Part shown: piece after piece, positions 1,019 through 47,315 of the stretch | Numbering within the stretch: the first letter of the stretch is position 1 | Layout of the letters: each line of letters opens with the position of its first letter | Position numbers and translations under genes: made by a program | Source: Acidimicrobiia bacterium | GTDB lineage: Bacteria > Actinomycetota > Acidimicrobiia > Acidimicrobiales > CADCSY01 | Assembly (NCBI GenBank): GCA_050249235.1 | Contig: JBFWQW010000002.1 | Location: forward strand, 7,936-71,935 | Length of the DNA: 64,000 bases | Direction: 5' to 3' | Notes under the pieces: model-generated | The model's input: the letters and a program-made list of their open reading frames with translations, nothing else | The model's database searches: none | Told to the model about the DNA's origin: nothing

Positions 1019-1381
1019 CCTGCTCGCATGGCACGGTCCCCTCCAGGGGCGAAGGGCCCACGTCCTCGAGTTGCGGAGGCAGGGCCCAGGAGCCGGCCCT
1101 TCAGATCGCGGTAGGCGAGGTCGTTGCGCTAACCCGAACCGGCCCGGCCGGCAATACACGCTGGTGACGGAAGGTACGGGGTGTTGCCCCCTCGTGCCCG
1201 CCCGGTCGAGCGGTCGAACGTGGCCCGCAGGTCGGCGACGACCGCCGGGTCGTCGACCCGGTCGGCGGGGGTCTGGGCCTCGGGCATCCCGACGTTGTAG
1301 CCGCGGGTGGCCCGTCCCGTTGTCCGGGGACCGGGCCGCGACCGGGGAAGCCCGACGGGCGGCGGGTACCGTCTCCGCTCG

Positions 1382-2002
1382 ATGGACGAGGCCCGGCGCC
1401 CGGGATCGAGGCGACGACACCTCATGATCGGGGTGCTCTCCTGCCTGGCCGGGCTGGTCGCCGCGGCCGGTGCCGCCACCGCCGTGGTCGCCCTCGGTGG
1501 CGACGACGACCCCGGGGTCGACATTCACTTCACCGCCGACGACGCCGACGGCGCTGGCACCGACGCAACCCCGCTCATCGGGCTCGACACGGACGGCGCG
1601 ACCGTGCCCGGCACCCGCTACGAGCTGCTCGCCGGCGGCCTCGGCTCGCTCCGCGACCACCGGGGCACGCCGATGGTCGTCAACTTCTTCGGCTCCTGGT
1701 GCGTCCCGTGCAGGGACGAGATGCCGGCCTTCGAAGCGGTCCACGACGACCTCGGCGACCGCGTCGCCTTCGTGGGCATCGCCTTCCGGGACGGCGCCGA
1801 CGCGGCCCGGGCCCTCGTCCGGCAGACGGGCGTGACCTACGAGACCGGGCGCGACCCGACGGGAAAGATCGCCGAGGCCCTCGACATCCTGAAGTTCCCC
1901 ACCACGCTGCTCGTCGACGCCGAGGGCCGGGTCGTCTCCACCCACCCCGGCGAGCTCACCGCCAGGCAGCTGCGGGCGCTGATCGACGACCACCTGCTGT
2001 GA
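1382..2002 (+). CDS. TlpA/ResA-family thiol-disulfide oxidoreductase (cytochrome c maturation)
   Basis: ORF 1307-2002. It has a signal-anchor (RRRHLMIGVLSCLAGLVAAAG) followed by a thioredoxin fold with a WCVPC active site (FFGSWCVPCRDEMPAF). The start is uncertain: GTG 1307, ATG 1382 or ATG 1424. Confidence 0.8.
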   Translation: MDEARRPGSRRRHLMIGVLSCLAGLVAAAGAATAVVALGGDDDPGVDIHFTADDADGAGTDATPLIGLDTDGATVPGTRYELLAGGLGSLRDHRGTPMVVNFFGSWCVPCRDEMPAFEAVHDDLGDRVAFVGIAFRDGADAARALVRQTGVTYETGRDPTGKIAEALDILKFPTTLLVDAEGRVVSTHPGELTARQLRALIDDHLL

Positions 2003-2021
2003 GGCGGGGAGCGCCGGCCGC

Positions 2022-2927
2022 GTGCCGGGGGAGCCGGCGACCGTGATCGAGGTCCCCTTCACCTATGCCTTCACCCTCGGGCTCGTCGCGGCCGTGAACC
2101 CGTGCGGGTTCCCGATGCTGCCCGCCTACCTCTCCTTCTTCGTCGGCGCCGACGACCCCGATCACGCCGATCACGCCGATCACGCCAGCGGCGCCGGCGG
2201 CGCCGGCGGCGGCACCGACACGCCGGTCCGCGTGCTGCGGGCCCTGGGCGCGGGGGCGTGCGTGTCGCTCGGCTTCTTCGTGGTGTTCCTGGGGTTCGGG
2301 CTGCCGATCGACGCCGGCCTCGACGTCATCCTCGACTGGGTGCCATGGCTGACGATGGTGATCGGCGCCGGCCTGGCCGGCCTCGGCGTCGCCACGCTGC
2401 TCGGCCATCCCCTCCGGCCCGGCCTGCCCCGTCTCGACCGGGGGGGCCGCACCCGGGGGGCCGGCTCGATGGTGCTCTTCGGCATCTCCTACGCCGTCGC
2501 CTCGCTCGGTTGCACCCTCCCGCTCTTCCTGGCGGTGGTCGCCGGCACGACCTCACGCGAGAACCTGGCGTCGGGCGTGGCCGCCTTCGGCGCCTACGCG
2601 GCCGGCATGAGCGTGGTGCTCCTCGCCCTCTCGCTGGCCCTCGCCTTCGCCCGGGAGGGGATGGTGCGCTGGCTCCGCTCCACGCTGCGCTACGTCGACC
2701 GGATCGCCGCCGTGCTGCTCGTCGCGGTCGGCACCTACCTCGTGTACTACGGCGTCGTCGCCGTCCGAGACGACGCCGTGGCCGACAGCCCCGTGACCTT
2801 CGTCGACGACCTCTCGAACGACCTCACCGTGTGGATCCAGGACCGGGCCACCGGCCTCGGCCTCGTCCTCGCCACGATGGTGGCCGCCGGGCTGGCCTGG
2901 TCGCTGCTCCTGCGCGAGCGGCGCTGA
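2022..2927 (+). CDS. ccdA: Cytochrome c biogenesis protein CcdA (DsbD-type transmembrane thiol transporter)
   Basis: A polytopic membrane ORF with the N-terminal LVAAVNPCGFPMLPAYLSFF cysteine motif and a second Cys helix (SYAVASLGCTLPLFLAV). It lies directly downstream of the TlpA-like gene. An alternative GTG at 2043 has a GGGGGAG RBS. Confidence 0.85.
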   Translation: MPGEPATVIEVPFTYAFTLGLVAAVNPCGFPMLPAYLSFFVGADDPDHADHADHASGAGGAGGGTDTPVRVLRALGAGACVSLGFFVVFLGFGLPIDAGLDVILDWVPWLTMVIGAGLAGLGVATLLGHPLRPGLPRLDRGGRTRGAGSMVLFGISYAVASLGCTLPLFLAVVAGTTSRENLASGVAAFGAYAAGMSVVLLALSLALAFAREGMVRWLRSTLRYVDRIAAVLLVAVGTYLVYYGVVAVRDDAVADSPVTFVDDLSNDLTVWIQDRATGLGLVLATMVAAGLAWSLLLRERR

Positions 2928-7977: not shown

Positions 7978-8877
7978 TCAGGGCTCCATCGGCGCCGGTC
8001 CGGCTTCGGCGAGCTCGCGCTCGACCTGGGCCCAGGTGAGCTCCGGCGAGCGCCGGTCGAGCGCGATGCCCCGGTCGCGGTCGTCGGCCTGCGACTGGTT
8101 CGCGAAGCGGATGAACAGGGAGGCGATGATCACCCACAGGTAGGTGCCGGCCAGGAGCTTCATCATCGTGGCCGCCAGCTGCTGGTCCTCGAGCGCGGTG
8201 AGGCCCCAGATCCGCCCGACCCGGTCGTAGGACTCGTAGGCCACGTGCTCGGCGAACACGAGGATCCCGGCCGGCACGGTCGGCACGACCGACTGGAGGA
8301 AGAGGTGGGCGGCCTGCACGAGCAGGGAGAAGCGCAGCTCGGGCAGGGGCGAGCACACCCCCATCCACACGATCAGGCCGGTGGTGACGACGAGCAGGTG
8401 CACTCCGTAGTGGGCGAAGGGGTTCGTCACCGACGCCTCCACCACCAGGGGCCAGTGGCTGAACACCACGACGGCGTTGAAGAGGATCGTCGCCGGCACC
8501 AGCCGGGTGAGCCACCGCACGACCCGGTAGCCGCGCCCGTCCCCCACCACCATCCGGGCCAGCCAGGTCGGTGTGGCGAGCAGCGCCATCGGCGGCACGA
8601 CCAGCGAGAGCAGGAGGTGCTGGGCCATGTGGGCGCTGTAGAGGTGCTCCTCGGCGATGTCGTGCACGGGCCAGTCCGACGCCACCCACAAGGTGACGAT
8701 GGTGGCCACGAACCAGCGGAGCTGGGCCGGGGTGACCACCGGCTCGCCCTCGAGGGTCGCCGACGGCCCGATGCGGCGGACGGCGTAGGCGTAGAGGCCG
8801 ATCAGGCCGAGGAGGAGCGCCCAGACCTCGGGGTGCGGCTGCCACCGCCAGACGTCGACGGCGGCGACCACGGCCAC
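7978..8877 (-). CDS. ctaG: Cytochrome c oxidase assembly factor CtaG (caa3 type, membrane)
   Basis: A 299-aa polytopic protein with a HMAQHLLLSLVVPPMALLATP motif. It is the last gene of the cta operon. Confidence 0.8.
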   Translation of the reverse strand: MAVVAAVDVWRWQPHPEVWALLLGLIGLYAYAVRRIGPSATLEGEPVVTPAQLRWFVATIVTLWVASDWPVHDIAEEHLYSAHMAQHLLLSLVVPPMALLATPTWLARMVVGDGRGYRVVRWLTRLVPATILFNAVVVFSHWPLVVEASVTNPFAHYGVHLLVVTTGLIVWMGVCSPLPELRFSLLVQAAHLFLQSVVPTVPAGILVFAEHVAYESYDRVGRIWGLTALEDQQLAATMMKLLAGTYLWVIIASLFIRFANQSQADDRDRGIALDRRSPELTWAQVERELAEAGPAPMEP

Positions 8878-8881
8878 CGCC

Positions 8882-9244
8882 TCAGAACCTGATGCCCGCC
8901 GGCGGCGCCCGGTCCTCGAGCGGCTCGCTCGTGGTGTCGTCCCCGAAGAACTGCGTGGACACGAACACGATCATGTACACGAAGACGGCGAGCAGGAGCC
9001 CGGAGACGAAGGCCCACCGGAACAGCGCGCTGTCGAAGCGGAGGTGCATGAACCACATGGCGACGATGGCGAACTTCGTGACCATGAGGACGAGCATCAG
9101 GCCGAGGACGGGCCCCTCGATGTCGGTGATGTACGGCAGCGCCACCTCCGCGCCGGTGATGGCGGCGAGGATCAGGGCGATCTGCCAGTAGTTCCGATCG
9201 GTGGGGTGGGCGTGGCCGGTGTCGTGGGCGCTGACGGTCGTCAT
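8882..9244 (-). CDS. Cytochrome c oxidase subunit IV (prokaryotic COX4 family)
   Basis: A 120-aa protein with three TM helices. The N-terminal part HAHPTDRNYWQIALILAAITGAEVALPY is typical of bacterial caa3/aa3 subunit IV. It follows ctaE. Confidence 0.75.
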   Translation of the reverse strand: MTTVSAHDTGHAHPTDRNYWQIALILAAITGAEVALPYITDIEGPVLGLMLVLMVTKFAIVAMWFMHLRFDSALFRWAFVSGLLLAVFVYMIVFVSTQFFGDDTTSEPLEDRAPPAGIRF

Positions 9245-9254
9245 GCCGGGCTCC

Positions 9255-9905
9255 TCAGGGCTCGATCAGGTAGACGACGGTGAAGATCAGGATCCACACC
9301 ACGTCGACGAAGTGCCAGTAGAGGCCGACGATCTCGAGCGACTCCGACTTGGCCGTGGGCAGCTTCCCCCGCAGCGAGAGCACGTAGAGGCTCAGCAGCA
9401 TCACGATGCCGAGCGTGACGTGGACCCCGTGGAAGCCGGTGAGCGTGTAGAAGGACGAGCTCTGGAGGCTGGTCGTGAAGCCCATGCCCTCCTTGACGAA
9501 CGACGTGAACTCGTAGACCTGCCCGGCCACGAAGCTGGCGCCGAGGGTGGCGGTGGCGAGGATCCACGTCCGGGCCTGCCGGTGCTCGCCCCGCTTCAGC
9601 GCGGCCAGGGCCAGCACCATGGTGAGCGAGCTCATGAGGAGGACGAAGGAGCTGACCGACGTGAAGGGGATGTCGTAGAGCTCGTGGACCTCGGGCCCGC
9701 TGACGACGGGCTTGACCCGGTTGATCAGGAAGACCGAGATGAGGCCGCCGAAGAGGAGGCACTCCGAGCCCAGGAAGGCCCACATGGCGAGCTTCTCGTT
9801 CGAGAGCCCCGTGCTGGTGCGGTGGCCGCCACCGGCATGGCCGTCGTCGGTGTGACCGTCGGCGGCGTGGTCGGTGTCGGCGACGTGCAGGACCGTCTCG
9901 GTCAT
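9255..9905 (-). CDS. ctaE: Cytochrome c oxidase subunit III
   Basis: A 216-aa protein carrying FYTLTGFHGVHVTLGIVML and GLYWHFVDVVWILIFTVVYL motifs. Its start shares an ATGA overlap with the ctaD stop. Confidence 0.9.
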   Translation of the reverse strand: MTETVLHVADTDHAADGHTDDGHAGGGHRTSTGLSNEKLAMWAFLGSECLLFGGLISVFLINRVKPVVSGPEVHELYDIPFTSVSSFVLLMSSLTMVLALAALKRGEHRQARTWILATATLGASFVAGQVYEFTSFVKEGMGFTTSLQSSSFYTLTGFHGVHVTLGIVMLLSLYVLSLRGKLPTAKSESLEIVGLYWHFVDVVWILIFTVVYLIEP

Positions 9906-11902
9906 TCCCCATCCTCCGCGTCCGCGGTCCCGGCCCCGACGAGGACCGCTTCCTGTTCGGGCTCCGGATCGGGCTCGCCGCCGTGGTGCCCGTCACCGTG
10001 GCCGGCGTCCGGGTCGACCGACGGCTCGAGGGCCCACCCGTACACGGCACCGAAGACGAGCAGGCCGCCGAGGGCCGACAGCCAGTACGTGTACATGAGC
10101 CCGTAGGCGATGAGCGGCAGGCCGAGGGCGAGCACGAGCGGCCAGTACGAGGGCGACGGCAGGTGGATGCCCGTCGGCGGCGTGTCGGCGATGAACGTCT
10201 CCACCCGCTCCCGGCGCCGGACCTTGTGGTCGGAACCCACCTCGTACTTGCGATGCCAGAAGTCGTCGAGCTGGGTCACGGTCGGCTCGATGTCGAAGTT
10301 GTGGGCGGGCGGCGGCGAGGACGTCGCCCACTCGATGGTGCGGGCGTCCCAGGGATCGGGATCGTGGGTGACGTTCCGGCGGCTGTACACCACGTTGTAG
10401 ATGAACACCAGGAACCCGAGGGCGATCACGAACGAGCCGATGGTCGAGAGCAGGTTGGGGATGTCCCAGCCCATGCCCTCGGGGTAGGTGGCCGTGCGCC
10501 GGGGCTGGCCCTGCAGACCGGCGATGTGCATCGGCCCGAAGGTCAGGTTGAAGCCGATCAGCCAGGTCCAGAAGTGGAGCTTGCCGAGGCGCTCGTCGAG
10601 GAACCGGCCGAAGATCTTCGGCCACCAGAAGTAGAGCCCGGCGAAGATGCCGAACATCGAGCCGCCGAACAGCACGTAGTGGAAGTGGGCGACGATGTAG
10701 TAGGTGTCGGTCTGCTGCCAGTCGGACGGTGACACCGAGTGGGTCACGCCCGAGAGCCCGCCGATGGTGAACTGCGACACGAGGCCCACCGCGAAGCACA
10801 TGGCGGTGGTGAACCGCAACTTGCCGCCCCACAGCGTGCCGACCCAGTTGAAGATCTTCACGCCGGTGGGCACGGCGATGAACATCGTCGAGAGGGAGAA
10901 GGCCGCCACGGTGACCGGCCCCGCGCCCGAGGCGAACATGTGGTGGGCCCACACACCCCATCCCATGAAGCCGATGGCGATCCCGGAGAAGACCATGAAC
11001 GAATAGCCGAACAGGGGCTTGCGGGCGAAGACCGGGATGATCTCGGACACGATGCCGAATGCCGGCAGGACGAGGATGTACACCTCCGGGTGGCCGAAGA
11101 TCCAGAAGAGGTGCTGCCACATGAGCGGGTCGGCGCCGGCCTCGACCACGAAGAAGTTGCTCTCGAAGAGCCGGTCGAAGGAGAGCAGGAACAGCGCCAC
11201 CGTGATGACCGGGATGGCGAAGAGCAGCAGGAACTGGGCGACCAGCGACATCCAGACGAAGATCGGCATCCGCATGAGGGTCATGCCGGGGGCCCGCATG
11301 TTGACGACCGTGACGATCAGGTTGATGGCCCCGATGAGCGAGGCGATGCCCGCGATCTGCAGGCCGAGGGCCCAGAAGTCGACGCCGTGACCCGGGTTGT
11401 AGGCCAGGCCGGAGTTCGGGACGTACATGAACCAGCCGCCGTCGGCGATCTCGTCGAGGACCGCACCCGAGTACAGGAACACGCCACCGGCGAGGAAGAT
11501 CCAGAACGACAGCGCGTTGAGCCGCGGGAAGGCGACGTCGCGGGCGCCGATCATCAGCGGGATCAGGTAGTTCGAGAAGGCCGCCAGCATCGGCATGATC
11601 ACGAGGAAGACCATGGTCGTGCCGTGCATCGTGAAGGCCTGGTTGAAGCGCTCGGGCGAGAGCACCTGGCCGTCGGGCTGGGCCAGCTGGGCCCGGATCA
11701 GCAGGGCCTCGAGGCCGCCCAGGCCGAAGAACACGAGCGCGGCCGCGCCGTAAAGGATGCCGATGCGCTTGTGGTCGACGGTCGTGAGCCACGACCGCCA
11801 CCCCTTGGTGCTCGTCGGCCGGCGGAAGACGCCGAGCGGCTCGCTGACGACGAGGTCGCCGGCCACGAGCTCGGGCCGCGGCTTGTCCAGGTCGATCGCC
11901 AT
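9902..11902 (-). CDS. ctaD: Cytochrome c oxidase subunit I with a C-terminal two-helix extension
   Basis: ATG at 11902 (MAIDLDKPRPE...). All canonical ligands are present: TMHGTTMVFL, WIFGHPEVYILVLP, VWAHHMF, VAHFHYVLFGG. The product is 666 aa, and about 120 of those lie beyond the usual end. Confidence 0.95.
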   Translation of the reverse strand: MAIDLDKPRPELVAGDLVVSEPLGVFRRPTSTKGWRSWLTTVDHKRIGILYGAAALVFFGLGGLEALLIRAQLAQPDGQVLSPERFNQAFTMHGTTMVFLVIMPMLAAFSNYLIPLMIGARDVAFPRLNALSFWIFLAGGVFLYSGAVLDEIADGGWFMYVPNSGLAYNPGHGVDFWALGLQIAGIASLIGAINLIVTVVNMRAPGMTLMRMPIFVWMSLVAQFLLLFAIPVITVALFLLSFDRLFESNFFVVEAGADPLMWQHLFWIFGHPEVYILVLPAFGIVSEIIPVFARKPLFGYSFMVFSGIAIGFMGWGVWAHHMFASGAGPVTVAAFSLSTMFIAVPTGVKIFNWVGTLWGGKLRFTTAMCFAVGLVSQFTIGGLSGVTHSVSPSDWQQTDTYYIVAHFHYVLFGGSMFGIFAGLYFWWPKIFGRFLDERLGKLHFWTWLIGFNLTFGPMHIAGLQGQPRRTATYPEGMGWDIPNLLSTIGSFVIALGFLVFIYNVVYSRRNVTHDPDPWDARTIEWATSSPPPAHNFDIEPTVTQLDDFWHRKYEVGSDHKVRRRERVETFIADTPPTGIHLPSPSYWPLVLALGLPLIAYGLMYTYWLSALGGLLVFGAVYGWALEPSVDPDAGHGDGHHGGEPDPEPEQEAVLVGAGTADAEDGE

Positions 11903-11904
11903 CG

Positions 11905-12948
11905 CTACTCCAGCGTCTTCAGGTAGGCCACGAGCGTCTCGATCTCCGCTTCGGTGAGCGGGCCGATCTGCATGAGGGAGCCGGCCTTGCGCTGCGGGTT
12001 GCGCAACCAGGCCTTCAGCTCGTTGGTGTCGGTGAGGTCGTAGATGCAGCCGGCGAAGCAGTCCCGGCTGTACAGGTGGGTGAGGTCGGGGGCGGGGGGT
12101 GAGTCGTCGGCCACGACCTCGTACTGGCCTTCGACCCGGTGGCAGCCGGCGCAGCCCTTCTGCTCGAAGAGCGCGAAGCCCTCGGCCTCGTCGCCGGACG
12201 ACGGCGTCGACGGCGCGTCCTGCATGCGGCCCAGCCACTCCTCCCAGTCGTCCGGGCCGTGGGCGACGACCTTCAGCCGCATGTTGGCGTGGGAGGTGCC
12301 GCAGAACTCGGCGCACTGGCCCGAGTAGACGCCCGGGGCGTCGGCCTCGAGGTTCCAGTCGTGGACCCGGCCGGGCACGACGTCGCGCTTGCCGTTCAGC
12401 CGGGGGGCCCAGAAGGAGTGGATGACGTCCTTCGACCGCAGCGTGAGCTTCACCGGCTGGCCGGCCGGGATGTGCAGCTCGTTGGCCGTGACGATGGCCT
12501 GGTCGATCCCGAGCTCGGACTGCTCCGGATAGGTGTAGGCCCACCAGTACTTCTGGCCCGTCACCTCGACCTCGAGCGAGCCGGCCGGCGGGTTGTCGGA
12601 CACGTCGAAGATCACCGGCAGGGTCATCACGCCGACACCCACCAGCACCAGGGCGGGCAGGATCGTCCAGCCGATCTCGAGGCGGGTGTTGCCGTGGAGC
12701 TGCTCGGGGAACTCCTCGTCGCCGGGGCGGCGGCGGAACTTGACCACCGCCACCACGACGAGCACCTGCACCAGGAAGAAGACGAAGATCGCGAACCCGA
12801 AGATCGGGCGCTGGAGATCGTCGATCAGGCGGGCCGGCCGGCCGGCCGGCTCGAACACGTCCTGGGGGGCGTCGGACGCGCAGGCCGTGAGGAACAGCCC
12901 CAGCCCGAGGGCGGGGAGGGCGCGGCACCACCGGCGGAAGCGGGTCAT
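11905..12948 (-). CDS. ctaC: Cytochrome c oxidase subunit II with a fused cytochrome c domain (caa3 type), lipoprotein
   Basis: ATG at 12948. It has a lipobox LFLTAC, the CuA site HSFWAP...CAEFCGTSHANM, and a C-terminal heme c motif CAGCH. Confidence 0.9.
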   Translation of the reverse strand: MTRFRRWCRALPALGLGLFLTACASDAPQDVFEPAGRPARLIDDLQRPIFGFAIFVFFLVQVLVVVAVVKFRRRPGDEEFPEQLHGNTRLEIGWTILPALVLVGVGVMTLPVIFDVSDNPPAGSLEVEVTGQKYWWAYTYPEQSELGIDQAIVTANELHIPAGQPVKLTLRSKDVIHSFWAPRLNGKRDVVPGRVHDWNLEADAPGVYSGQCAEFCGTSHANMRLKVVAHGPDDWEEWLGRMQDAPSTPSSGDEAEGFALFEQKGCAGCHRVEGQYEVVADDSPPAPDLTHLYSRDCFAGCIYDLTDTNELKAWLRNPQRKAGSLMQIGPLTEAEIETLVAYLKTLE

Positions 12949-13682
12949 CGGTCGTTCGTCTCCTCGGCGGTGGCTTCGCCCTGGTCCTCGCTGTGGTGCT
13001 CCTCGAAGGTGCGGTGCCCGCTCACGGCGCCGATCACGCCGGTGATCAGGAAGACCAGGGCGCCCACGGCCACGACGGCGGTGACGAGCGACGAGCTGAG
13101 GCGGGGCCGGGCCGCCACCAGCGCCGCGATGCCGAGGATCACCGAGGCGACGACGATCGCCACCACGGTCGAGCCGGTCTTCGGCAGCGCCAGCAGGACA
13201 CGCGAGAAGGAGACGACGATCAGCCCGACGCCGAGGCCGGCGGTGAGCGGGACCTCGAGCGGGAACATCAGCCGGTTCCGCAGCTCCTGGTTGGCGGCGT
13301 CGTCGCCGGTGGCCCGCTCGGCCCAGCCCTGAACCAGCCACTCGCCGAAGACGAGGGTGAGGATGCCGAGCCCGGTCCAGAAGAGGAACGTGCCGCCGGC
13401 CAGGCCGATCAGCGTGGTGCCGGTGCCGAGCGCAGCGAGGGCGGGCCAGGCGGCGGGGAGCGCGCGGCGGGGCAGCACCGTGGGCAGGGTCTCCGCCGGC
13501 GAGGCCGGGTCGCCGTCGTTCGTCGCCGAGGACAGGCCAACCAGCACGCCGGCCGCCACGACCAGGGAGCCGAGCACGAAGGTGCCGAACCACTCGCCGT
13601 CGCTGGCGACGGCGTAGACGACGGTCGAGCCGAAGGCGAGGAAGGCGATGGCGAGCCAGAGCTTGCCGGCGGTGCCGTTCAC
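12945..13682 (-). CDS. Polytopic membrane protein of unknown family (about 245 aa)
   Basis: GTG 13682 overlaps the upstream TGA (GTGA), and its own stop overlaps the ctaC ATG (ATGA). GC3 bias is very strong and there are about 7-8 hydrophobic helices. I recognise no motif. Confidence 0.6.
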   Translation of the reverse strand: MNGTAGKLWLAIAFLAFGSTVVYAVASDGEWFGTFVLGSLVVAAGVLVGLSSATNDGDPASPAETLPTVLPRRALPAAWPALAALGTGTTLIGLAGGTFLFWTGLGILTLVFGEWLVQGWAERATGDDAANQELRNRLMFPLEVPLTAGLGVGLIVVSFSRVLLALPKTGSTVVAIVVASVILGIAALVAARPRLSSSLVTAVVAVGALVFLITGVIGAVSGHRTFEEHHSEDQGEATAEETNDR

Positions 13683-14290
13683 GAGGAGGGCCCTCCCGTC
13701 AGGAACCACAGGCACCAGTAGACGACGCCACCGGCGGCCACCACGAAGTGCCAGACGGAGACGGCGCTGGTGACGAACCCGGCGTTGCCCGGGCCGAACT
13801 GGCCGCCGAGCACCCGGAATCCCATGGTGAGGAAGAGGACCAGGGCGGCGACCACCAGGACCAGGTGCGTGCCGGAGGCGGCGTAGACCACGTTGGCGTA
13901 CGTGCTCTCCCCGGCCTCGAAGCCGAGCTGCGTGTAGCAGAAGGAGAGGCCGTTGACGAAGGCCAAGCCGAGGAGCATGGTGACGCCGACGGCCACATAG
14001 GTCTGCCGCCGCTCGCCGACCTTGATGGCCCAGACGGCCCACTGCGCGGTGAACGACGAGAGCAGCAGCGCCATGTAGGTGACGCCGAGGGCGCTGTTCG
14101 GCATGTCGCCGGCCTCGAGGCCCCACTCGCCGCCGCCGGCGAGCACCGCCTCGCGGGCCGCGAAGTAGGCCGCCAGGAGGCCGCCGACGAGCATCGTGCC
14201 GGCCGCGATGGCGAGGAAGGTGCCGGTGAGCAGCACCGAGCGCCGGGGCTCGGGCGCGGCGGGGAGCGGGCCCTGGACCGTGACCGCCAT
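13679..14290 (-). CDS. Heme-copper oxidase subunit III-like protein (paralogue)
   Basis: A 203-aa protein with five helices and a terminal SVWHFVVAAGGVVYWCLWFL resembling the YWHFVD..W signature of subunit III. It shares an ATGA overlap with the upstream subunit I-like gene. Confidence 0.7.
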   Translation of the reverse strand: MAVTVQGPLPAAPEPRRSVLLTGTFLAIAAGTMLVGGLLAAYFAAREAVLAGGGEWGLEAGDMPNSALGVTYMALLLSSFTAQWAVWAIKVGERRQTYVAVGVTMLLGLAFVNGLSFCYTQLGFEAGESTYANVVYAASGTHLVLVVAALVLFLTMGFRVLGGQFGPGNAGFVTSAVSVWHFVVAAGGVVYWCLWFLTGGPSS

Positions 14291-15873
14291 CAGGCCTCCC
14301 TCTCGTCGAGCAGCGGGGTGGCCGATCCGACGGCGAGGACCGCGGACGGGAAGTTCGTGGCGACGGGCGGCGAGGACGTGGCCCACTCGAGGGTGTGGCC
14401 GCCCCAGGGGTCGGCCGGACCCGTGCCGCCGGCGAGGGCGGCGCGTGCCGCCGTCGCCAGCGCGACGAGGAGGCCGACGACCAGCAGGGCGCTGCCGGCC
14501 ACGGCGACGACGTTCAGCGCCTGGATGCCGGCATCGGAGGACGCGCCGGGCGCCAGGACGACGTCTTCGGCGAGGCCGTTGACGAGCGTGGCGACGGCGA
14601 CGAGGAGGGTGCCGCCGAAGGTGGCGAGGAAGGCGAGCGCGCCGGCGCCGTCGGGGAGCGTGGTCCCGTAGAGCTTCGGCGCCCACCACCACAGCCCGCC
14701 CAGCCCGCCGAGCCCCGCCGCGCCGAACACCACCAGGTGGAAGAGGCCCGTCTCCCAGACGGTGCCCCGCAGGTCGAGCCCGTCGATGACCGAGAGCGCG
14801 CCGGCCCCGGCGCCGAGGAGGAGGAGCAGGGCGCTCCCGCCGGCGAAGAGGAGCGGCACCTTCAGCACCGGGTTGCCGTTGCGGGCGGTGTCGGCCAGGA
14901 GGCCGACGACGGCGAGGGCGGGCACGACGGCGGCGAGGCCGATGGCGACGTAGAGCAGCTCGTCGAAGGTGCCGGGCACCTGGGCCCAGGCGCCGATGCT
15001 CACGATGCCGAGGGCGCCGAGCACGACCAGGACGGCCTCGTGGTGGCGGACCCGGTTCCGGACCAGGACCGGGACGATCTCGAAGGCCACGCCGACGGCC
15101 GGGACCGCGACCAGGTAGAGCTGGGGGATCGAGTGGGCCCAGGCGATGTCGCCGTAGTCGGCGAGGCCGTAGTCGCCGCCGAAGTGGTGGGTGACGAAGA
15201 GGACGATGACCCGGGCCAGCAGCACCGGCGCGCCGAGGAGCGTCAGGCCGGCGGTGACGACGATCGACCACGTGAAGGCGGGCACCCGCAGCAGGGTCAT
15301 GCCCGGTGCCCGCATGCTGAGGGCGGTCGTCAGGACGCAGAGCATCCCGAGGCCGAGGGCGCCGGCGAGCATGCCGAGGGCCAGGAGGTGGAGGTCGACG
15401 GCGACACCGTCGGCGCCCGACGGTCCGCCGTCGGCGGCGTAGGCGCCGAGCAGCAGGCCGGCACCGACCAGGTAGGTCCAGTAGGCGGTGGCCGCGCCCC
15501 GGGGGAAGGCCATGTCCGGGGAGCCGACCTGGATCGGGACGACGAACGTGGCCAGCCCGAGGAGCAGGGGCACGACGAACAGCCAGATCGCAGCCTCGCG
15601 GTGCAGGGTCAGGAGCTGCAGGTAGACGTCGGCATCGACGACGTCGAAGCCCTCGTCGAGGCCCTCGAGGGCGACGACGGTGCCGATCACGGTCGCCACC
15701 ACGCCGAGCACGAGGGCGGTGAGCACGTACAGCCGACCGAGCTGCTTGTGGTCGGAGGTCGTGAACCACCCGGCCAGGCCGGGGCGCTCCGGCGGGGGGA
15801 CGAGCGCCGGCGCACCAGGCGTCGCCTCGGTGGGCGCGGCCTCGGGCGCGGGTCTGGTCTCGGTCATGGCCAT
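14290..15873 (-). CDS. Heme-copper oxidase subunit I-like protein (divergent paralogue; binuclear-centre ligands apparently missing)
   Basis: A 527-aa protein that aligns by eye with ctaD along its length (WFTTSDHKQLGRLYV, LTLHREAAIW, SMRAPGMTLLRVPAFTW, LEWATSSPP). However, WAHHMF is replaced by WAQVPG and AHFHYV by GLFHLV. Confidence 0.8.
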   Translation of the reverse strand: MAMTETRPAPEAAPTEATPGAPALVPPPERPGLAGWFTTSDHKQLGRLYVLTALVLGVVATVIGTVVALEGLDEGFDVVDADVYLQLLTLHREAAIWLFVVPLLLGLATFVVPIQVGSPDMAFPRGAATAYWTYLVGAGLLLGAYAADGGPSGADGVAVDLHLLALGMLAGALGLGMLCVLTTALSMRAPGMTLLRVPAFTWSIVVTAGLTLLGAPVLLARVIVLFVTHHFGGDYGLADYGDIAWAHSIPQLYLVAVPAVGVAFEIVPVLVRNRVRHHEAVLVVLGALGIVSIGAWAQVPGTFDELLYVAIGLAAVVPALAVVGLLADTARNGNPVLKVPLLFAGGSALLLLLGAGAGALSVIDGLDLRGTVWETGLFHLVVFGAAGLGGLGGLWWWAPKLYGTTLPDGAGALAFLATFGGTLLVAVATLVNGLAEDVVLAPGASSDAGIQALNVVAVAGSALLVVGLLVALATAARAALAGGTGPADPWGGHTLEWATSSPPVATNFPSAVLAVGSATPLLDEREA

Positions 15874-15986: not shown

Positions 15987-16907
15987 TCAGATCCCGGATC
16001 GCAGCAGCTCGTCGAGCGCCATCGCGGCGAACAGGAGCGTGAGGTAGGTGATCGACCAGGTGAACATGCGCATCGCCACCTGGGGCGTCGGCTCCCGCAG
16101 CAGCCGCACCGCGAACCAGGTGAACGCCGCGCCGAGCCCGACGGCGGCCACGCCGTAGAGCGGCCCGAGGCCGGCCGCCCAGCCGAAGGCCAGCGTGAGG
16201 GCCCAGAGGATCAGTGTGTAGCGCAGGATGCGCAGCGCGGTCGTGTGCAGCGACGCCACGACAGGGAGCATCGGCACCGACGCGGCCTCGTAGTCGTCGC
16301 GGTAGCGGACCGCGAGGGCCCAGAAGTGCGGCGGCGTCCAGAAGAAGATCACCGCGAAGAGGTAGACGGGCGCCCAGTCGAGCGAGTCCCGCACCGCGGC
16401 CCAGCCCACGAGGACGGGAACGGCGCCGGCCGCCCCGCCGATGACGATGTTGCTGGTGGACGTCCGCTTCAGCCACAGCGTGTAGACGAAGACGTAGAAG
16501 AGCGTGGCGCTCACGGCCAGCAGGGCGCTGAGCAGGTTGACCGTCAGCCACAGCAGCCCGAAGGCGGCGACCTCGAGCCCGATCGCGAACACCAGGGCGT
16601 CCCGGGGCCGGATGGCGCCCGTGACGAGCGGCCGGTGCCGGGTGCGGCGCATGAGCTGGTCGATGTCGCGGTCGATGAACATGTTGATGGCGTTGGCACC
16701 GCCCGCGGCCAGGGTGCCCCCGACGACGGTGGCGAGGATGAGCCAGGGCGAGGGGAGCCCCCCCTCGGCGACCACCATGGTCGGGACCGTCGTCACGAGC
16801 AGCAGCTCGATGATCCGGGGCTTCGTGAGCGCCACGTAGGAGCCGACGGTCGACCAACCGCCAGCCCGGACCCGTCCCCGTTCGCTGGCGACGAGCTGCG
16901 GCTGCAC
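15987..16907 (-). CDS. ctaB: Protoheme IX farnesyltransferase (heme O synthase)
   Basis: A 306-aa UbiA-family protein: [44 protein letters not shown]. Confidence 0.9.
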
Positions 16908-16975: not shown

Positions 16976-18004
16976 GTGCCCTACGACCCGCCGGCTCCGG
17001 GCGCCCGGACGGGGCTGTCGCCCGTGGCCTACCGCCGCATCACCCTGGTCGCGCTGACGTCGCTGGCCGTGATCGTGGTGACCGGCGCGGCGGTTCGCCT
17101 CACGGGCTCGGGCCTGGGCTGCAGCGACTGGCCGACGTGCGAGCAGGGCCAGCTGGCCCCGGCCGACCTCCGGGACGCGCCCGCCATGGTCGAGTTCGTC
17201 AACCGCACGATCACCGGGGTGGTGTCGGTGGCCGTGATCCTCGCCGTGCTCGGGTCGCTGGTCCGCCGGCCCCGGCGCCGCGACCTCACCCGGCTCTCGG
17301 TCGGGCTGGTCGTGGGCGTGCTGGCCCAGATCGTGCTCGGCGGCCTCGTCGTCCTCCTCGACCTCTCGCCCCGCCTCGTCATGGCCCACTTCGCCCTCTC
17401 GATGGTGATCGTGTGGAACGCCGTCGTCCTGCACCACCGGGCCGGGCTGCCCGACCTCGACGACCCGGCGCCGATGGCACCCCTACCGAGCGGATCGCCA
17501 GCGGCCGCATGGCGCCCGGGCGCGGCGCGACGGCTGGACCGGCTCACGCGGGGCGTGGTGGCGGCCGCCGCGGTCGTGGTGCTCACCGGCACGGTCGTCA
17601 CCGCGGCCGGTCCCCACGCCGGCGACGAGCAGGCCTCCCGTCTCGACCTGCCGGTCGCCGACGTGGCGCGCGTCCACGGCATCGCCGTGCTGGTCCTGCT
17701 GGCGGTCGTGCTGGCGGCCGCCCACGTGGTCCGGGCACCCGGCGCCCCGGTGGAGCGGCGCGAGCAGGTCGCGCGGCTGCTCTGGGTGCTCGTGGCCCAG
17801 GCCGCCGTCGGCTACACGCAGTACTTCACGGACGTCCCGCCGCTCCTCGTCGGGATCCACATCTGCGGTGCCCTCGCGGTGTGGATCGGCGCCGTCCAGC
17901 TCCGGCTGGAGAGCGCCCTCCCCCGCGCCGCCGGGTCCCGGCGCCCGGACGCCCCCTACCGGGCGCCCGACGGCGCCGACCTGAGCGCCGTGGGACCGGC
18001 ATGA
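16976..18004 (+). CDS. ctaA: Heme A synthase (COX15/CtaA)
   Basis: A 342-aa protein with [17 protein letters not shown] and paired His-containing helices. It is divergent from ctaB. Confidence 0.9.
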
Positions 18005-18288
18005 GCACGGCGCCGGTCGAGGTCCACGACCCGACGGTCGACGACGTCGCCGACCTCGACACGCCCTGGATCGTCCTCGTGTGGAACGACCCCATCAACC
18101 TCATGTCCTACGTGACCCACGTGTTCCAGAAGCTGTTCGGCTACAGCCGGGAGAAGGCCACGGCCCTGATGCTCGACGTCCACGAGAAGGGCCGGGCGGT
18201 GGTGTCGAACGGGACGCGTGAGCGGTGCGAGCTCGACGTCTTCCGCCTCCACGAGCACGGCCTCTGGGCGACGATGCAGCAAGACTGA
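18001..18288 (+). CDS. clpS: ATP-dependent Clp protease adaptor ClpS
   Basis: ATG 18001 overlaps the ctaA TGA. The sequence [46 protein letters not shown] is classic ClpS. Confidence 0.9.
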
Positions 18289-18330
18289 GCTTCCCTGCGG
18301 GAGCGGGCTCGGGTCGAGCGGGAGGGAGCG

Positions 18331-18798
18331 TTGGTGCTGATCGGGCGGCGGGTGCGACGGACCCGCAAGGGTGACTTCGAGGTCCGCCTGCCCCCCGAGG
18401 AGCGCGAGCTGCTCCGGACGGTGGTCCCCCAGCTCGCCGACCTGCTCACCGGCGACCTCGACGACCCGGGGCTGCGCCGCCTCTTCCCGACCGCCTACGC
18501 CGACGACCCCGAGAGGGACGCCGCCTACCAGCGGCTCGTCCGGGACGAGCTGGCCGACCGGCGGCGGGCGGCCGCGGCCACGATGGTCGCCAGCGTCGAC
18601 GCGACCCGACTCGACGAGGCCCAGCTGCACGCCTGGATGGGCGCCGTCAACGACCTCCGGCTCGTGCTCGGGACCCGCCTCGACGTGAGCGAGGAGACCG
18701 ACCTGGTTCCCGACCCGGACGACCCCGACGCGCCCCTCCTCGCGCTGTACGGCTACCTCGGGCTCCTCCTCGAGACCCTGGTCGACGCCGTCTCTTGA
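18331..18798 (+). CDS. DUF2017-like protein (conserved ClpS neighbour in Actinomycetota)
   Basis: A 155-aa protein: FEVRLPPEERELLRTVVPQLADLL...RLFPTAYADDPERDAAYQRLVRDEL. The RBS is GGGAGGGAG. The start is TTG 18331 or GTG 18334. Confidence 0.7.
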   Translation: MVLIGRRVRRTRKGDFEVRLPPEERELLRTVVPQLADLLTGDLDDPGLRRLFPTAYADDPERDAAYQRLVRDELADRRRAAAATMVASVDATRLDEAQLHAWMGAVNDLRLVLGTRLDVSEETDLVPDPDDPDAPLLALYGYLGLLLETLVDAVS

Positions 18799-43786: not shown

Positions 43787-46447
43787 CTACAGCGATGTTG
43801 ACACCCAACTTGAGTCTTTCTCCATCAAGTTTTCGTCCAACCAGGCCATCACTTCGCTGGCCGGCCCCGGCCTGGCGAAGTGGAAGCCCTGGGCGTAGCG
43901 GCAGCCCAGGCCCCGGAGCCGCTCGGCCTGGCCCGGTGTCTCGATGCCCTCCGCCACGACCGTCAGGCCGAGGCGCTCGCCGAGGGCGAGCACCGCCTCC
44001 ACCACCGCGTCGTCGGGGTCGGTGCGCTGGGGGTCGACGAAGCTCCGGTCGATCTTCAGCTCGTCGACCGGCAGCGACCGCAGGCGCCCGAGCGACGAGT
44101 AGCCGGCGCCGAAGTCGTCGACCGACAGGCGCACGCCGATGGACCGGAGCCGGTGCAGCGTCGTCTCCGTGTCCGCGTCGTCGGCCAGCGCGCCCTCGGT
44201 GATCTCCAACGTGAGCAGGCCGGGGGCCAGACCGCAGCGGAGCGCGGCCTCGACCGTTGCGCACAGCGCCGAGTCCTGGAGCTGGCGGGTGGAGAGGTTC
44301 ACCGACACCCCGACCGGGGGGCCGTCCGGCCGGTGGGCCTGCCAGGCCAGGGCGGCCGCGCAGGCCTCGGTCAGGACGCGGGCCCCGAGGGGCACGATCA
44401 GGCTCGAGTCCTCGGCCACGCCGATGAACTCGCCCGGGGCGATGAGACCGCCGAAGCCGTCCGGCAGGCGGGCCAGGGCCTCGAAGCCGACGGCCCGGCC
44501 GGTGCCCAGCTCGACGATGGGCTGGTAATGCACGACGACGCTCCCGTCGAGCACGCAGGCCTGGAGCCGCTCCTCGACCGCCCGGCGCCGCATGACGGCG
44601 TCGTGCATGTCGGAGGTGAAGCGCTCGACCCGGCCCCGACCCCGCTTCTTCGCCACGTACATGGCCACGTCGGCATCGCGGATCAGGTCCTCGGCGGCGC
44701 CACCCTCGTGGAGCGAGGCCACCCCGATCGACCCGCCGCAGTGGACCGCCCGGCCGCGGACGGGAAGCGCCGTCTCGAGGCCGGCGAGGACCCGCTCGGC
44801 GAGCGTGGCCGCGGCCTCGCCGCCCGGATCGTGGGGCAGCAGCACGGCGAACTCGTCCCCGCCGAGCCGGGCGACCAGGTCGTGGGGCCTCGTGCAGGCC
44901 CGCAACCGACCGGCCACGGCGACGAGCACCTCGTCGCCGAGCTGGTGCCCGGCGGTGTCGTTGATCGCCTTGAACTCGTCGAGGTCGAGCAGGAGCAGCG
45001 AGGGCCGGGCACCCCGGCGCAGCGTAGCGTCGAGCTCCTCGGCCAGCCGGGCCCGGTTGGCGAGCCCGGTGAGGCTGTCGTGGTAGGCCTGCTGGAGGAG
45101 CCGGGCCTCGAAGGCCCGACGCTCCGTGACGTCGCGGAAGGTGGCGAGCAGGGAGCCCTCGCCCGTCCCCACCTTCACCGGCGTGAGCTTGGCCTCGATG
45201 GGGCACCAGGTCCCGTCGGCCCGGCGGAGGCGGAGGTCGCAGCCGCCGGCACGGGTCGCGTCCGGCCCGGGGTCCAGCGCGGCGGCCACCCGCTCGCGGT
45301 CGGCGGGGTGCACCTCGTCGATGAGCAGGGCGCCCACCAGCGACTCGGGGTCGCGGCCCAGCACCTCCTCGACCGAGGAGCTGACGTAGCCGAGCCGCCC
45401 GCCGGCGTCGACGATGGCGATCACGTCGGAGATGCGCTGGAGGATCGTGCGCAGGTCGCTCTCCCGGCGGCGCAGCTCGTCGGTGCGCTCGGCCACCCGG
45501 GCCTCGAGGGTCTGGGTGAGCCGGCCGTTCTCGTGGACGCTCAGCAGCTGGCGGGCGACGAGCACGAGCGAGATGGCGGTCACCGCCAGGACCTCCCACC
45601 GCCGCAGGTCGCCGATGTTGGCGACCGCGAGGAACAGGGCCACGACCACGGGCGGGTAGGGGACGGTGAGCTCCCAGCCGGGCGGTGCGGCCAGGACCGC
45701 GTCCTCGGTGGTCGAGCTGGTGGCGAGCGCGCCCAGCCCCACGAGCAGGTACCCGGTCACCCACAGCAGGTCGACGAGCTGGCCCCCGGCGAAGCCGCCG
45801 GTGGCCTCGTGGTAGGCCCAGACGGAGTCGGCCACGGCGACCGTGAACAGGCCGGCCGCCCGGTAGGTCCACGGTCCCCGCGCCGACGGGGGGAGCCGCA
45901 CCATGACCACCAGGCAGAGGGACGCGGCGAGCGACCCCAGCACCGGATAGACCCAGACGATCGACGTCCGGTCGGCGTGGGACAGCAGGAGCACCCAGAG
46001 GACCCAGGAGACGGAACCGCCGAGCAGGACGCAGTCGAGGGCGGTGCGCAGGGCGGTGGCCCCGTTGACGAGGGCCCGCATCCGGGTGCCGGCCCCGACG
46101 ACGGCCGCCACCAGGGCCAACGTGTAGAAGGGATCGGCGGGCGAGGGGGTGGGGACCCGGTCGCCGAGCACCAGCTCGTAGGAGGCCCAGATGAGGTTGG
46201 CGCCGAGCCACGCCGCCGGCACGAGGACGAAGACCGAGCTGGCCAGCCGGGCGCTGCGCTCGCCCCGGGTGTCGCGTCTGGCGAGGCTCCACACCAGCGC
46301 CACGGCCGGCGCCAGCACCCAGGCGACGTCGCTCACGTCCCGCTGCGCCCGCCCGGAGGACTGCGGCAGGAGGTACCAGACCGCCAGCACCACGAGGAGC
46401 GCGAGCACCGTCCGCCTGGCGCGGACGAGCGACGGGCGCAGGAGCAT
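43787..46447 (-). CDS. Membrane-anchored PAS-GGDEF-EAL c-di-GMP signalling protein
   Basis: ATG 46447 (MLLRPSLV...). The protein has about 9 N-terminal TM helices, a PAS-like segment, a GGDEF domain ([11 protein letters not shown]) and an EAL domain ([18 protein letters not shown]). Confidence 0.85.
43809..43829. promoter_or_regulatory. HspR-associated inverted repeat (HAIR) upstream of dnaK
   Basis: CTTGAGT-N7-CATCAAG compared with the consensus CTTGAGT-N7-ACTCAAG: one half-site is perfect and the other has 2 mismatches. It lies 69-89 nt upstream of the dnaK ATG. Confidence 0.6.
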
Positions 46448-46559
46448 GCTCCACCATCGGCACCTCGGCACCGGCCCTGAATCACCCGGCGCCGAACCAG
46501 GGCGGTGTCCGCGGCCGCCACACCAGGTGCGGCTGGCGGCCCGGTACGGTGCCGGACCG

Positions 46560-47315
46560 ATGGCAGCCAACCTCGTGCTCGTCCGCCACGGCCAGAGCCT
46601 CTGGAACGAGCTGAACCTCTTCACCGGTTGGCACGACGTCGATCTCACCCGGAAGGGCGAGGACGAGGCCCGCCACGCCGGCCGGCTGCTGGCCGACGCC
46701 GGCCTCGAGGTCGACGTCGTCCACACCTCGCTCCAGCTCCGCGCCATCCGCACCGCCGACCTGGCCCTCGAGGCCTGCGGGCGGCTGTGGATCCCGGTGC
46801 GGCGGTCGTGGCGGCTGAACGAGCGCCACTACGGCGACCTGCAGGGGAAGGACAAGGCCGAGACCACGCGCCAGTACGGAGAGGACCAGGTGAAGGTGTG
46901 GCGGCGCTCGTACGACGTCCCGCCGCCCCCGGTCGGGCCCGACGACGAGCGCCACCCCCGCTTCGACCCCCGCTACGCCGACCTGGCCCCCGACCTGCTG
47001 CCCGCCACGGAGTGCCTGGCCGACGTCGTCGACCGGATGCTCCCCTACTGGTACGACGCCATCTGCCCCGACCTCCGAGCCGGCCGGCGGGTGATGGTGG
47101 CCGCCCACGGCAACAGCCTGCGGGCCCTGGTGAAGCACCTCGACCGCATCGCCGACGACGACATCGCCGAGCTCAACATCCCGACCGGGATCCCCCTCGC
47201 CTACGACCTCGACGAGGCCTTCCGGCCCCGCTCGAGCAGGTACCTCGATCCCGAGGCGGCCGCCGCCGGCGCGGCCGCCGTGGCTGCCCAGGCCACCGCC
47301 GCCCCGCCGGCCTGA
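46560..47315 (+). CDS. gpmA: 2,3-bisphosphoglycerate-dependent phosphoglycerate mutase
   Basis: ATG 46560. The sequence includes [32 protein letters not shown] and [10 protein letters not shown]. Confidence 0.9.

Follow-up and report, generated by a model that had tools for sequence, protein, structure and literature searches.

What do three additional oxidase-like genes do in an operon that already encodes a canonical cytochrome c oxidase? The question is raised by a 64,000-nucleotide stretch of an Acidimicrobiia bacterium genome (GenBank assembly GCA_050249235.1, contig JBFWQW010000002.1, positions 7,936 to 71,935; hereafter, the window), where three genes, here designated X1, X2, and X3, lie between ctaB and ctaC of a cta operon. 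The oxidase is of the caa3 type, since ctaC is predicted to encode a CuA subunit with a fused cytochrome c domain. A first-pass annotation, made by a model from the sequence, had pointed out the three extra genes between ctaB and the ctaC-D-E-IV-G set, and their coordinates and sizes proved correct, with all open reading frames (ORFs) intact. Here, we report that X1-X2-X3 is a set of paralogues of an aa3 oxidase membrane core, catalytically dead yet kept by selection and fixed in its place in the operon, an Acidimicrobiia-specific "pseudo-oxidase."

The ligand columns of X1 were checked in three ways: BLASTP against the CtaD of the window (27% identity; E value, 6e-50), HMMER against mycobacterial CtaD structures (E value, 2.7e-53), and MAFFT alignment with 35 CtaD sequences from the operons. 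The three alignments were concordant on these columns and reproduced the hand alignment of X1 with CtaD made in the first-pass annotation. Both axial histidines of the low-spin heme are kept (H91 in helix II, within TLHREA, and the second helix X histidine, H378, within GLFHLV). The heme a3 histidine (the first of the helix X HxH) is replaced by Leu, the CuB His-His pair of helix VII by Gln-Val, and the CuB histidine column of helix VI holds Ile, with a histidine two residues upstream in AHSIPQLY and the cross-link Tyr kept. All four histidines of the binuclear centre are therefore gone in the alignments, in agreement with the earlier description of a subunit I/III paralogue module lacking that centre. 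At the proton pathways (Rhodobacter sphaeroides numbering), N121, N139, and E286 of the D pathway are replaced by T, A, and Q, with D132 kept, and K362 of the K pathway by a hydrophobic residue; the heme-propionate-binding Arg pair is absent, even in the subclade in which the two axial histidines persist. In the CtaD of the window, the alignment columns hold all six histidines, the Tyr, and the equivalents of D132, E286, and K362. Nitric oxide reductases (NORs) of the cNOR, qNOR, and eNOR types carry a high-spin heme histidine and three histidines, with or without Glu/Asp, ligating FeB/CuB (PMC11214002); NOR-type ligands are likewise unfilled in X1, where the same columns are empty.

Profile searches with hidden Markov models (HMMs) assigned X1 to PF00115 (168.5 bits; cut-off, 34.8) and X2 to PF00510, with the ligand columns substituted as aligned by hand. 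X1 falls far below the equivalog cut-offs of TIGR02891 (235 versus 670.75 bits) and NF050116 (210 versus 880 bits), and so lacks, with its CuB histidines, heme a3 histidine, D- and K-pathway residues, and equivalog score, what marks a catalytic A-family subunit I. Its AlphaFold2 model, built from 64 homologues (predicted local distance difference test score [pLDDT], 87.4; predicted template modeling score, 0.88), has the 12-helix fold of subunit I and matches solved A-family subunits I over the full length (Foldseek template modeling score, ∼0.8), with proteobacterial oxidases as best matches; the fold is retained, as had been proposed. To judge from these alignments and the model, X1 keeps the fold and cannot form the oxygen-reducing site. 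The protein is identical to NCBI entry MGD9796708.1, annotated as "cbb3-type cytochrome c oxidase subunit I."

A protein search with X1 returned 193 homologues (E value, ≤1e-10), and figures given for 120 X1 homologues refer to the best 120 of these. Identities among the 120 listed were 37 to 99%, and homologues with a named source came mostly from Acidimicrobiales, Acidimicrobiia, or Actinobacteria. The full CuB ligand set was present in none of the 120. Among 48 species-level X1 sequences, a histidine stands in a CuB column in 0 to 3 and at the heme a3 position in 2, and the equivalents of N121, N139, E286, K362, R481, and R482 are replaced in most or all. Both low-spin heme histidines occur in 9 of the 48, and in 63 of the 120 matches listed; the losses are scattered, even among relatives 55 to 68% identical to the X1 of the window, with the helix II histidine replaced by Ser, Ala, or Gln and the helix X histidine by Glu, Asn, or Tyr. 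The claim that X1 keeps one heme site thus stood as far as the two axial histidines are concerned and was weakened by the missing Arg pair and by the repeated loss of the histidines in relatives. That loss rules out heme as a conserved cofactor of the whole family. Because the histidines were lost repeatedly while purifying selection persisted, heme is dispensable, and by this sequence evidence the conserved function of the module needs none; the bis-His pair in the window is probably either vestigial or an optional cofactor site particular to this lineage.

X2 has five helices and matches PF00510 with 37.2 bits (cut-off, 23.8). Its best NCBIfam model, NF050119 (aa3_CtaE_Actin), scores 57.8 bits, below the cut-off of 190, and X2 is therefore classed, on its sequence, as a divergent CtaE paralogue and not an orthologue. 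The best solved structure is Mycobacterium smegmatis CtaE (6adq_G; E value, 1.7e-13), colinear over the full length; identity to the CtaE of the window is 30%.

X3 had been described as a 245-amino-acid (aa) polytopic protein with no recognizable motif, a description that did not survive: four of its helices match CtaF, and many of its orthologues carry a C-terminal cupredoxin. The AlphaFold2 model (pLDDT, 77) has seven transmembrane helices, of which helices 1 to 4 are CtaF-like and the last three are additional, and ends in a short acidic tail that contains two adjacent histidines. On its own, the X3 of the window gave no significant Pfam family, PF12270 included, and matches to MarC, Mrp subunit B, and MAG0110 lay below their cut-offs and were judged compositional noise. 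The best Foldseek match is weak (6hwh_S, the CtaF of the M. smegmatis supercomplex; probability, 0.91; E value, 0.076). A profile of 60 X3 orthologues matches mycobacterial "cytochrome c oxidase polypeptide 4" (E value, 1e-4) over residues 5 to 113, that is, helices 1 to 4, and X3 aligns with the ctaF product of an Acidimicrobiales aa3 operon (hhalign probability, 88.6; E value, 2.7e-6); PF12270 is matched by 25 of 60 long X3 orthologues at an E value of ≤0.01 (best, 7e-8). Helices 1 to 4 are likely homologous to actinobacterial CtaF on this evidence, and because of its three additional helices X3 is not a true CtaF. The NCBI entry for the same protein, MGD9796706.1, is annotated as "hypothetical protein."

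An extra C-terminal domain of 110 to 165 aa is present in 32 of 120 X3 orthologues among the matches listed and in 67 of 136 full-length representatives; PF13473 (Cupredoxin_1) is matched in 29 of the 60 long representatives scanned, and SoxE by 2 of the 60. The motif Cys-x2-His-x2-4-Met is rarer (19 of the 120 matches listed; 9 of the 136 representatives, all 9 among the 67 extended ones), and the type 1 copper ligands His, Cys, His, and Met are invariant in 13 aligned X3 cupredoxin sequences. By profile, the domain is nearest to the C-terminal cupredoxin of copper nitrite reductase (NirK type), auracyanin, and amicyanin (E values, 1e-12 to 1e-8) and weakly related to CuA domains. Its origin as a remnant of the CuA domain of CtaC, through a CtaF-CtaC fusion, was considered and is not supported, since the NirK-type, auracyanin, and amicyanin matches rank far above CuA; an hhalign comparison with CtaC CuA placed the ligands in register (probability, 42; E value, 2.6e-4) and left the transmembrane parts unaligned. 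Two loci with a cupredoxin-bearing X3 have the same synteny as the window, in which X3 (245 aa; Pfam) lacks the domain.

The predicted topology of X3 places the N terminus inside and the C terminus, with its tails, outside; the most conserved loop, EW.VQ.WAER..DP..N..LRNR.M.P.E.P, is cytoplasmic by the same prediction. Many cupredoxin-less X3 proteins (among them those of loci L009, L012, L019, L020, L045, L064, and L065 and representatives P0269, P0294, and P0315) terminate in periplasm-facing repeats of His, Asp, and Glu, for example HGEEHSEEHGEE, HSDDHGGE, and HGEEHSEE, and these tails look like metal-binding tails.

The module does not derive from the oxidase beside which it lies. An HMM of aa3-type CtaD outscores one of caa3 CtaD in all 48 X1 sequences, and in a neighbor-joining tree X1 is monophyletic on a long stem (50/50 bootstraps) and groups with aa3-type CtaD to the exclusion of caa3 CtaD (50/50 bootstraps); a duplication of the neighboring caa3 CtaD is ruled out by both results. 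X1 also keeps the aa3-type C-terminal motif DPWGGHTLEW. Distances within the X1 family average 1.11 and those within the co-resident CtaD 0.32, an approximately 3.5-fold faster evolution of X1. The aa3 type of Acidimicrobiales has the gene order typical of actinobacteria (ctaC-ctaD-ctaF, and close by ctaE-qcrC-qcrA-qcrB), and both loci, the module-bearing caa3 operon and the aa3/qcr locus, occur in single metagenome-assembled genomes (MAGs) (L003/L039 and L004/L054). With X1 CtaD-like, X2 CtaE-like, and X3 CtaF-like, the module therefore reads, at the level of sequence, as a duplicated CtaD'-CtaE'-CtaF' set from the aa3 oxidase of the bcc-aa3 supercomplex.

X1 was present at 47 of 80 genome loci, the other 33 being an ordinary second oxidase. 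At all 47, ctaB adjoins X1 and the order, as far as the contig extends, is ctaA on the opposite strand and then ctaB-X1-X2-X3-ctaC-D-E-F-G. In an independent metagenome scan that took CtaC as its seed and not X1, 65 loci had enough DNA ahead of ctaC to be informative, and 57 of them carried the module there; the survey of related genomes thus showed the arrangement to be kept. The eight metagenome loci without it (L092, L105, L120, L126, L132, L133, L134, and L149) have the most divergent CtaD (58 to 69% identity); the ctaB genes visible at loci lacking the module (L120 and, outside these eight, L102 and L113) are downstream, on the other strand. Such operons may mark a sister lineage that predates insertion of the module. 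At almost all loci, the X1 and X2 genes share an overlap of 1 or 4 nt.

No frameshift or stop was found in the module ORFs across the 47 genome and 57 metagenome loci. Ratios of nonsynonymous to synonymous substitution (dN/dS; Nei-Gojobori NG86, 12 close locus pairs) were 0.04 to 0.40 for X1, 0.02 to 0.34 for X2, and 0.04 to 0.39 for X3, comparable to those of CtaC and usually above those of CtaD, often about twice as high. Clades without the low-spin heme ligands are under the same or stronger purifying selection (e.g., 0.04 to 0.11 in a marine clade). Carriers include Acidimicrobiia MAGs labeled marine, freshwater lake, sponge, and activated sludge (Microthrix), together with many metagenome contigs whose origin is not stated; marine Acidimicrobiaceae MAGs and a single-cell genome (L012, L019, L045, L064, and L065) have kept the module. 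A search with the X3 profile matched 1313 clusters at 50% identity among 1.84 billion representatives. The module is real, widespread, and maintained. The genome locus closest to the window (L001, JAEKLB010000030.1; X1, 59% identity; CtaD, 83% identity) is labeled "Acidobacteria bacterium" and has the full Acidimicrobiia-type operon; its taxonomic label or binning is probably wrong.

What, then, does a dead oxidase core do? The reading that we favor, at somewhat less than an even chance, is that X1-X2-X3 would be a noncatalytic subcomplex resembling subunits I, III, and IV, with a structural or adaptor role toward the caa3 oxidase. X1, X2, and X3 would assemble like CtaD, CtaE, and CtaF and act without redox chemistry, and the subcomplex would partner the coexpressed caa3 enzyme, docking most plausibly via its CtaE- and CtaF-like surfaces and tying the enzyme to the bcc complex, likewise encoded in these genomes, within one supercomplex. 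Where relatives have an intact type 1 copper site in X3, the cupredoxin would also provide an electron relay, tethered at the outer surface. Four considerations favor such a role. The genes are translationally chained to structural genes; the retained subunit types are those that contact QcrB in mycobacteria, where the contacts between complexes III and IV of M. smegmatis are made mainly by CtaE and CtaF with QcrB (PMC8361435); X3 bears a blue-copper carrier in some lineages; and the caa3 enzyme probably needs physical coupling to its donor, since Actinobacteria are known to have no soluble cytochrome c (PMC4505504).

Several points weigh on the other side. We infer the X1-X3 co-complex from the order of the genes, their translational coupling, and their homology to subunits that form one assembly. 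A module placed between bcc and caa3 would make electron transfer span an oxidase-sized distance, and most family members, that of the window included, lack type 1 copper and many lack heme, so an adaptor role alone leaves electron delivery unexplained. The most conserved motifs of X1 and X3 (DPWGGHTLEW and EW.VQ.WAER..DP..N..LRNR) are cytoplasmic and equally fit a role in biogenesis, and an assembly function would likewise suit genes placed immediately downstream of ctaB, with ctaA divergent. A more specific and rather unlikely version holds that the module would be the first pseudoenzyme complex derived from a heme-copper oxidase (HCO), a cofactor-stripped aa3 core whose CtaE/CtaF docking surface for the actinobacterial bcc complex would plug a Bacillus-type caa3 oxidase into the supercomplex; in lineages with a blue-copper X3, the copper domain would occupy the usual place of CuA and wire QcrC to the caa3 cytochrome c domain.

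The strongest competitor, which we consider unlikely and still the nearest to the adaptor reading, is a biogenesis scaffold or chaperone, in which the dead paralogue complex would serve as a transient platform for heme O or A, copper, or unassembled CtaC, CtaE, or CtaF during caa3 maturation, much as NifEN is a scaffold paralogue of NifDK. The genes separate ctaB from the structural genes in an operon that ends with ctaG and has ctaA as its divergent neighbor; the bis-His site of the window subclade could bind heme, and the X3 C termini, whether cupredoxins or His/Asp/Glu-rich repeats, could bind copper; and the conserved motifs face the cytoplasm, the side on which cofactors and nascent chains arrive. 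However, the heme ligands are gone in most lineages despite strong selection, and the copper ligands are found in only 9 of the 136 top X3 representatives. The same enzyme type is encoded without the module at eight metagenome loci and is assembled from Bacillus caa3 operons that have no such module, and three large membrane proteins translationally coupled to structural genes would be an unusual chaperone.

An electron relay, improbable in our estimation, would use one low-spin heme in X1 and a copper or cytochrome partner to pass electrons to or from caa3 or the quinone pool without reducing oxygen. It accounts for the axial histidine pair of the X1 in the window and of 63 of the 120 homologues listed, and for X3 cupredoxins being of an electron-carrier type; at the three examined loci that pair an intact type 1 copper X3 with X1, all three X1 proteins are His/His. 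It is opposed by the cupredoxin-less X3 of the window, the absence of the propionate Arg pair even in the His/His subclade, the lack of any evident terminal acceptor site, the relatives 55 to 68% identical in which one histidine is lost, and a family that as a whole works without axial ligands. A heme-based relay is possible for the His/His subclade only.

Least supported among the functional proposals, and very improbable, is new chemistry or transport, in which the former binuclear cavity, now lined by Gln and Tyr, would accommodate some other ligand, metal, or ion. Most X1 members read W...QPQ.Y in helix VI and AWAQ in helix VII: Gln occupies the helix VI CuB histidine column in 35 of the 48 sequences, the first helix VII histidine in 38, and E286 in 24, and Tyr or Phe is kept at Y288. 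Yet the X1 of the window is exceptional in having Ile at the helix VI column, hydrogen bonding between Gln and Tyr may merely fill an empty cavity, the X1 alignment has no conserved residues of an entry or exit pathway, and no linked partner enzyme gene was found at the loci or in the window. Decay of a duplicate, with pseudogenes or neutral passengers left by an operon duplication, would fit the 3.5-fold faster evolution of X1 than of the neighboring CtaD and the loss of cofactor ligands and is barely credible, being ruled out by ORFs free of frameshifts and stops and by dN/dS well below 1 in every pair (0.02 to 0.40), with start/stop coupling, motifs, and retention in marine genomes and a single-cell genome also against it; the module is intact and coupled to the caa3 operon, as first described.

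Set against known systems, X1, X2, and X3 are each nearest to CtaD, CtaE, and CtaF of the aa3 core (M. smegmatis, 6HWH and 6ADQ; Mycobacterium tuberculosis, 8HCR; Corynebacterium glutamicum, 7Q21), X1 and X2 by sequence and X3 by sequence and fold. The module differs from that core in X1, which lacks the CuB and heme a3 ligands, the D- and K-pathway residues, and the Arg pair and scores far below the equivalog cut-offs; in having no CuA subunit II partner; in the three extra helices of X3, with or without a cupredoxin; and in lying in a caa3 operon and not beside qcr genes. The surrounding operon matches the canonical caa3 arrangement exactly in order and content (ctaA/ctaB-ctaC-D-E-F-G, Bacillus type; Thermus caa3, 2YEV), except for the three genes inserted between ctaB and ctaC, of which X1 does not derive from the operon CtaD. 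Noncatalytic structural or scaffold paralogues are familiar from the bc1 core proteins (descendants of MPP peptidases), the noncatalytic F1 alpha subunit, and NifEN, and like them the module consists of duplicated enzyme subunits that kept the fold, lost catalytic residues, and are selected in the same pathway; unlike them, it arose by the joint duplication and degeneration of all three subunits of a set. Auracyanin, sulfocyanin SoxE (of the SoxM supercomplex), and amicyanin match the C-terminal domain of many X3 orthologues by profile, whereas the X3 anchor is a CtaF-like seven-helix protein instead of a single helix or lipid, and the domain is absent from the X3 of the window. CyoA, subunit II of the cytochrome bo3 quinol oxidase, has a cupredoxin fold that has lost its copper site and is a precedent for such a loss in an HCO subunit; CyoA belongs to an active oxidase, whereas here the catalytic subunit is dead too.

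The genes of the operon and their neighbor ctaA are listed in Table 1.

Table 1. Genes of the caa3 operon and its divergent neighbor, with positions in the window
Gene and product	Position	Strand	Evidence and remarks
ctaA, heme A synthase	16976-18004	+	PF02628; divergent from ctaB; neighbor conserved in relatives
ctaB, heme O synthase	15987-16907	-	PF01040, E value 2.3e-64; 113-nt gap to X1
X1, 527-aa CtaD-like subunit I paralogue	14290-15873	-	PF00115, E value 3e-49
X2, 203-aa CtaE-like subunit III paralogue	13679-14290	-	PF00510, E value 3.8e-9
X3, 245-aa CtaF-like seven-helix protein	12945-13682	-	AlphaFold2, Foldseek, family profile, hhalign
ctaC, caa3-type subunit II with CuA and fused cytochrome c domain	11905-12948	-	PF00116, PF02790, PF00034
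ctaD, canonical caa3 subunit I	9902-11905	-	PF00115, E value 9e-148; TIGR02891, 711.7 bits, above cut-off
ctaE, canonical subunit III	9255-9905	-	PF00510, E value 1.3e-20
ctaF, Bacillus-type subunit IV (COX4_pro)	8882-9244	-	PF03626
ctaG, Caa3_CtaG copper-insertion factor, final gene of the operon	7978-8877	-	PF09678, E value 1.5e-36

The region has a G+C content of ∼73%. Chaining of the genes by ATGA and GTGA overlaps, as first described, was confirmed for X3/ctaC (ATGA) and X2/X3 (GTGA) and corrected for X1/X2, where stop and start share the 1-nt overlap TGATG, all as read from the sequence. GGAGG-like Shine-Dalgarno motifs precede X2, X3, and ctaC, and in a promoter and terminator scan internal signals never exceeded the shuffled expectation and none interrupted the gene run. 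The C-terminal part of the window ctaD (9902 to 10400) encodes a subunit-IV-like extension matching PF12270 (profile positions 80 to 125); in relative L081, the PF12270 piece is a separate 89-aa gene (9267 to 9538) after a 598-aa ctaD, the difference reflecting fusion or fission of genes for the active oxidase.

Next after ctaA come a ClpS-like ORF and a DUF2017 gene (17950 to 18798, + strand), which are neighbors of the cta genes in L081 (1 to 726) and L083 (3149 to 3622) as well. At 1307 to 2927 (+ strand), ∼5 kb from the oxidase operon, a membrane-anchored thioredoxin-like protein (AhpC/TSA, Redoxin) is followed by a membrane protein weakly resembling DsbD_TM/CcdA, likely a thiol-reduction pair for cytochrome c maturation. 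A 753-aa fusion at 54725 to 56986 (+ strand) joins a heme b membrane domain like that of nitrate reductase gamma, a 4Fe-4S ferredoxin, and two CCG (HdrD/DsrK-like) domains and is possibly a quinone-linked enzyme like heterodisulfide reductase. Two adjacent cyclic di-GMP (c-di-GMP) proteins, PAS-GGDEF-EAL (43787 to 46753, − strand) and GGDEF (47352 to 49157, − strand), were also found. Elsewhere in the window are genes for purine biosynthesis, a chaperone, acyl-CoA dehydrogenase, and c-di-GMP signaling, none of them linked to X1-X3.

The literature searched, which included reviews of HCO assembly and diversity and left most subscription-journal papers outside, held no description of ligand-less HCO subunit I paralogues, of an Acidimicrobiia cta operon variant, or of the cupredoxin fusions, nor of any noncatalytic structural paralogue set in the HCO superfamily, which agrees with the earlier remark that no function had been described for such a module. 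HCOs are among the best-studied membrane enzymes, and their classification schemes presume an intact heme-metal centre. The module is a pseudoenzyme derivative of the HCO core, and the existence of a conserved, selected three-subunit set without that centre means that the HCO scaffold has a second, noncatalytic life. Public labels for X1 itself ("cytochrome c oxidase subunit I," "cbb3-type") inflate counts of terminal oxidases in metabolic reconstructions, as would the names that JGI gives to homologues, among them "cytochrome c oxidase subunit I+III" and "plastocyanin." Given the 1313 X3 clusters and the spread over habitats, the module is a common component of environmental respiratory chains. 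If the adaptor idea is true, it would represent a new way to build respiratory supercomplexes, and if the scaffold idea is true, a new class of oxidase assembly factor.

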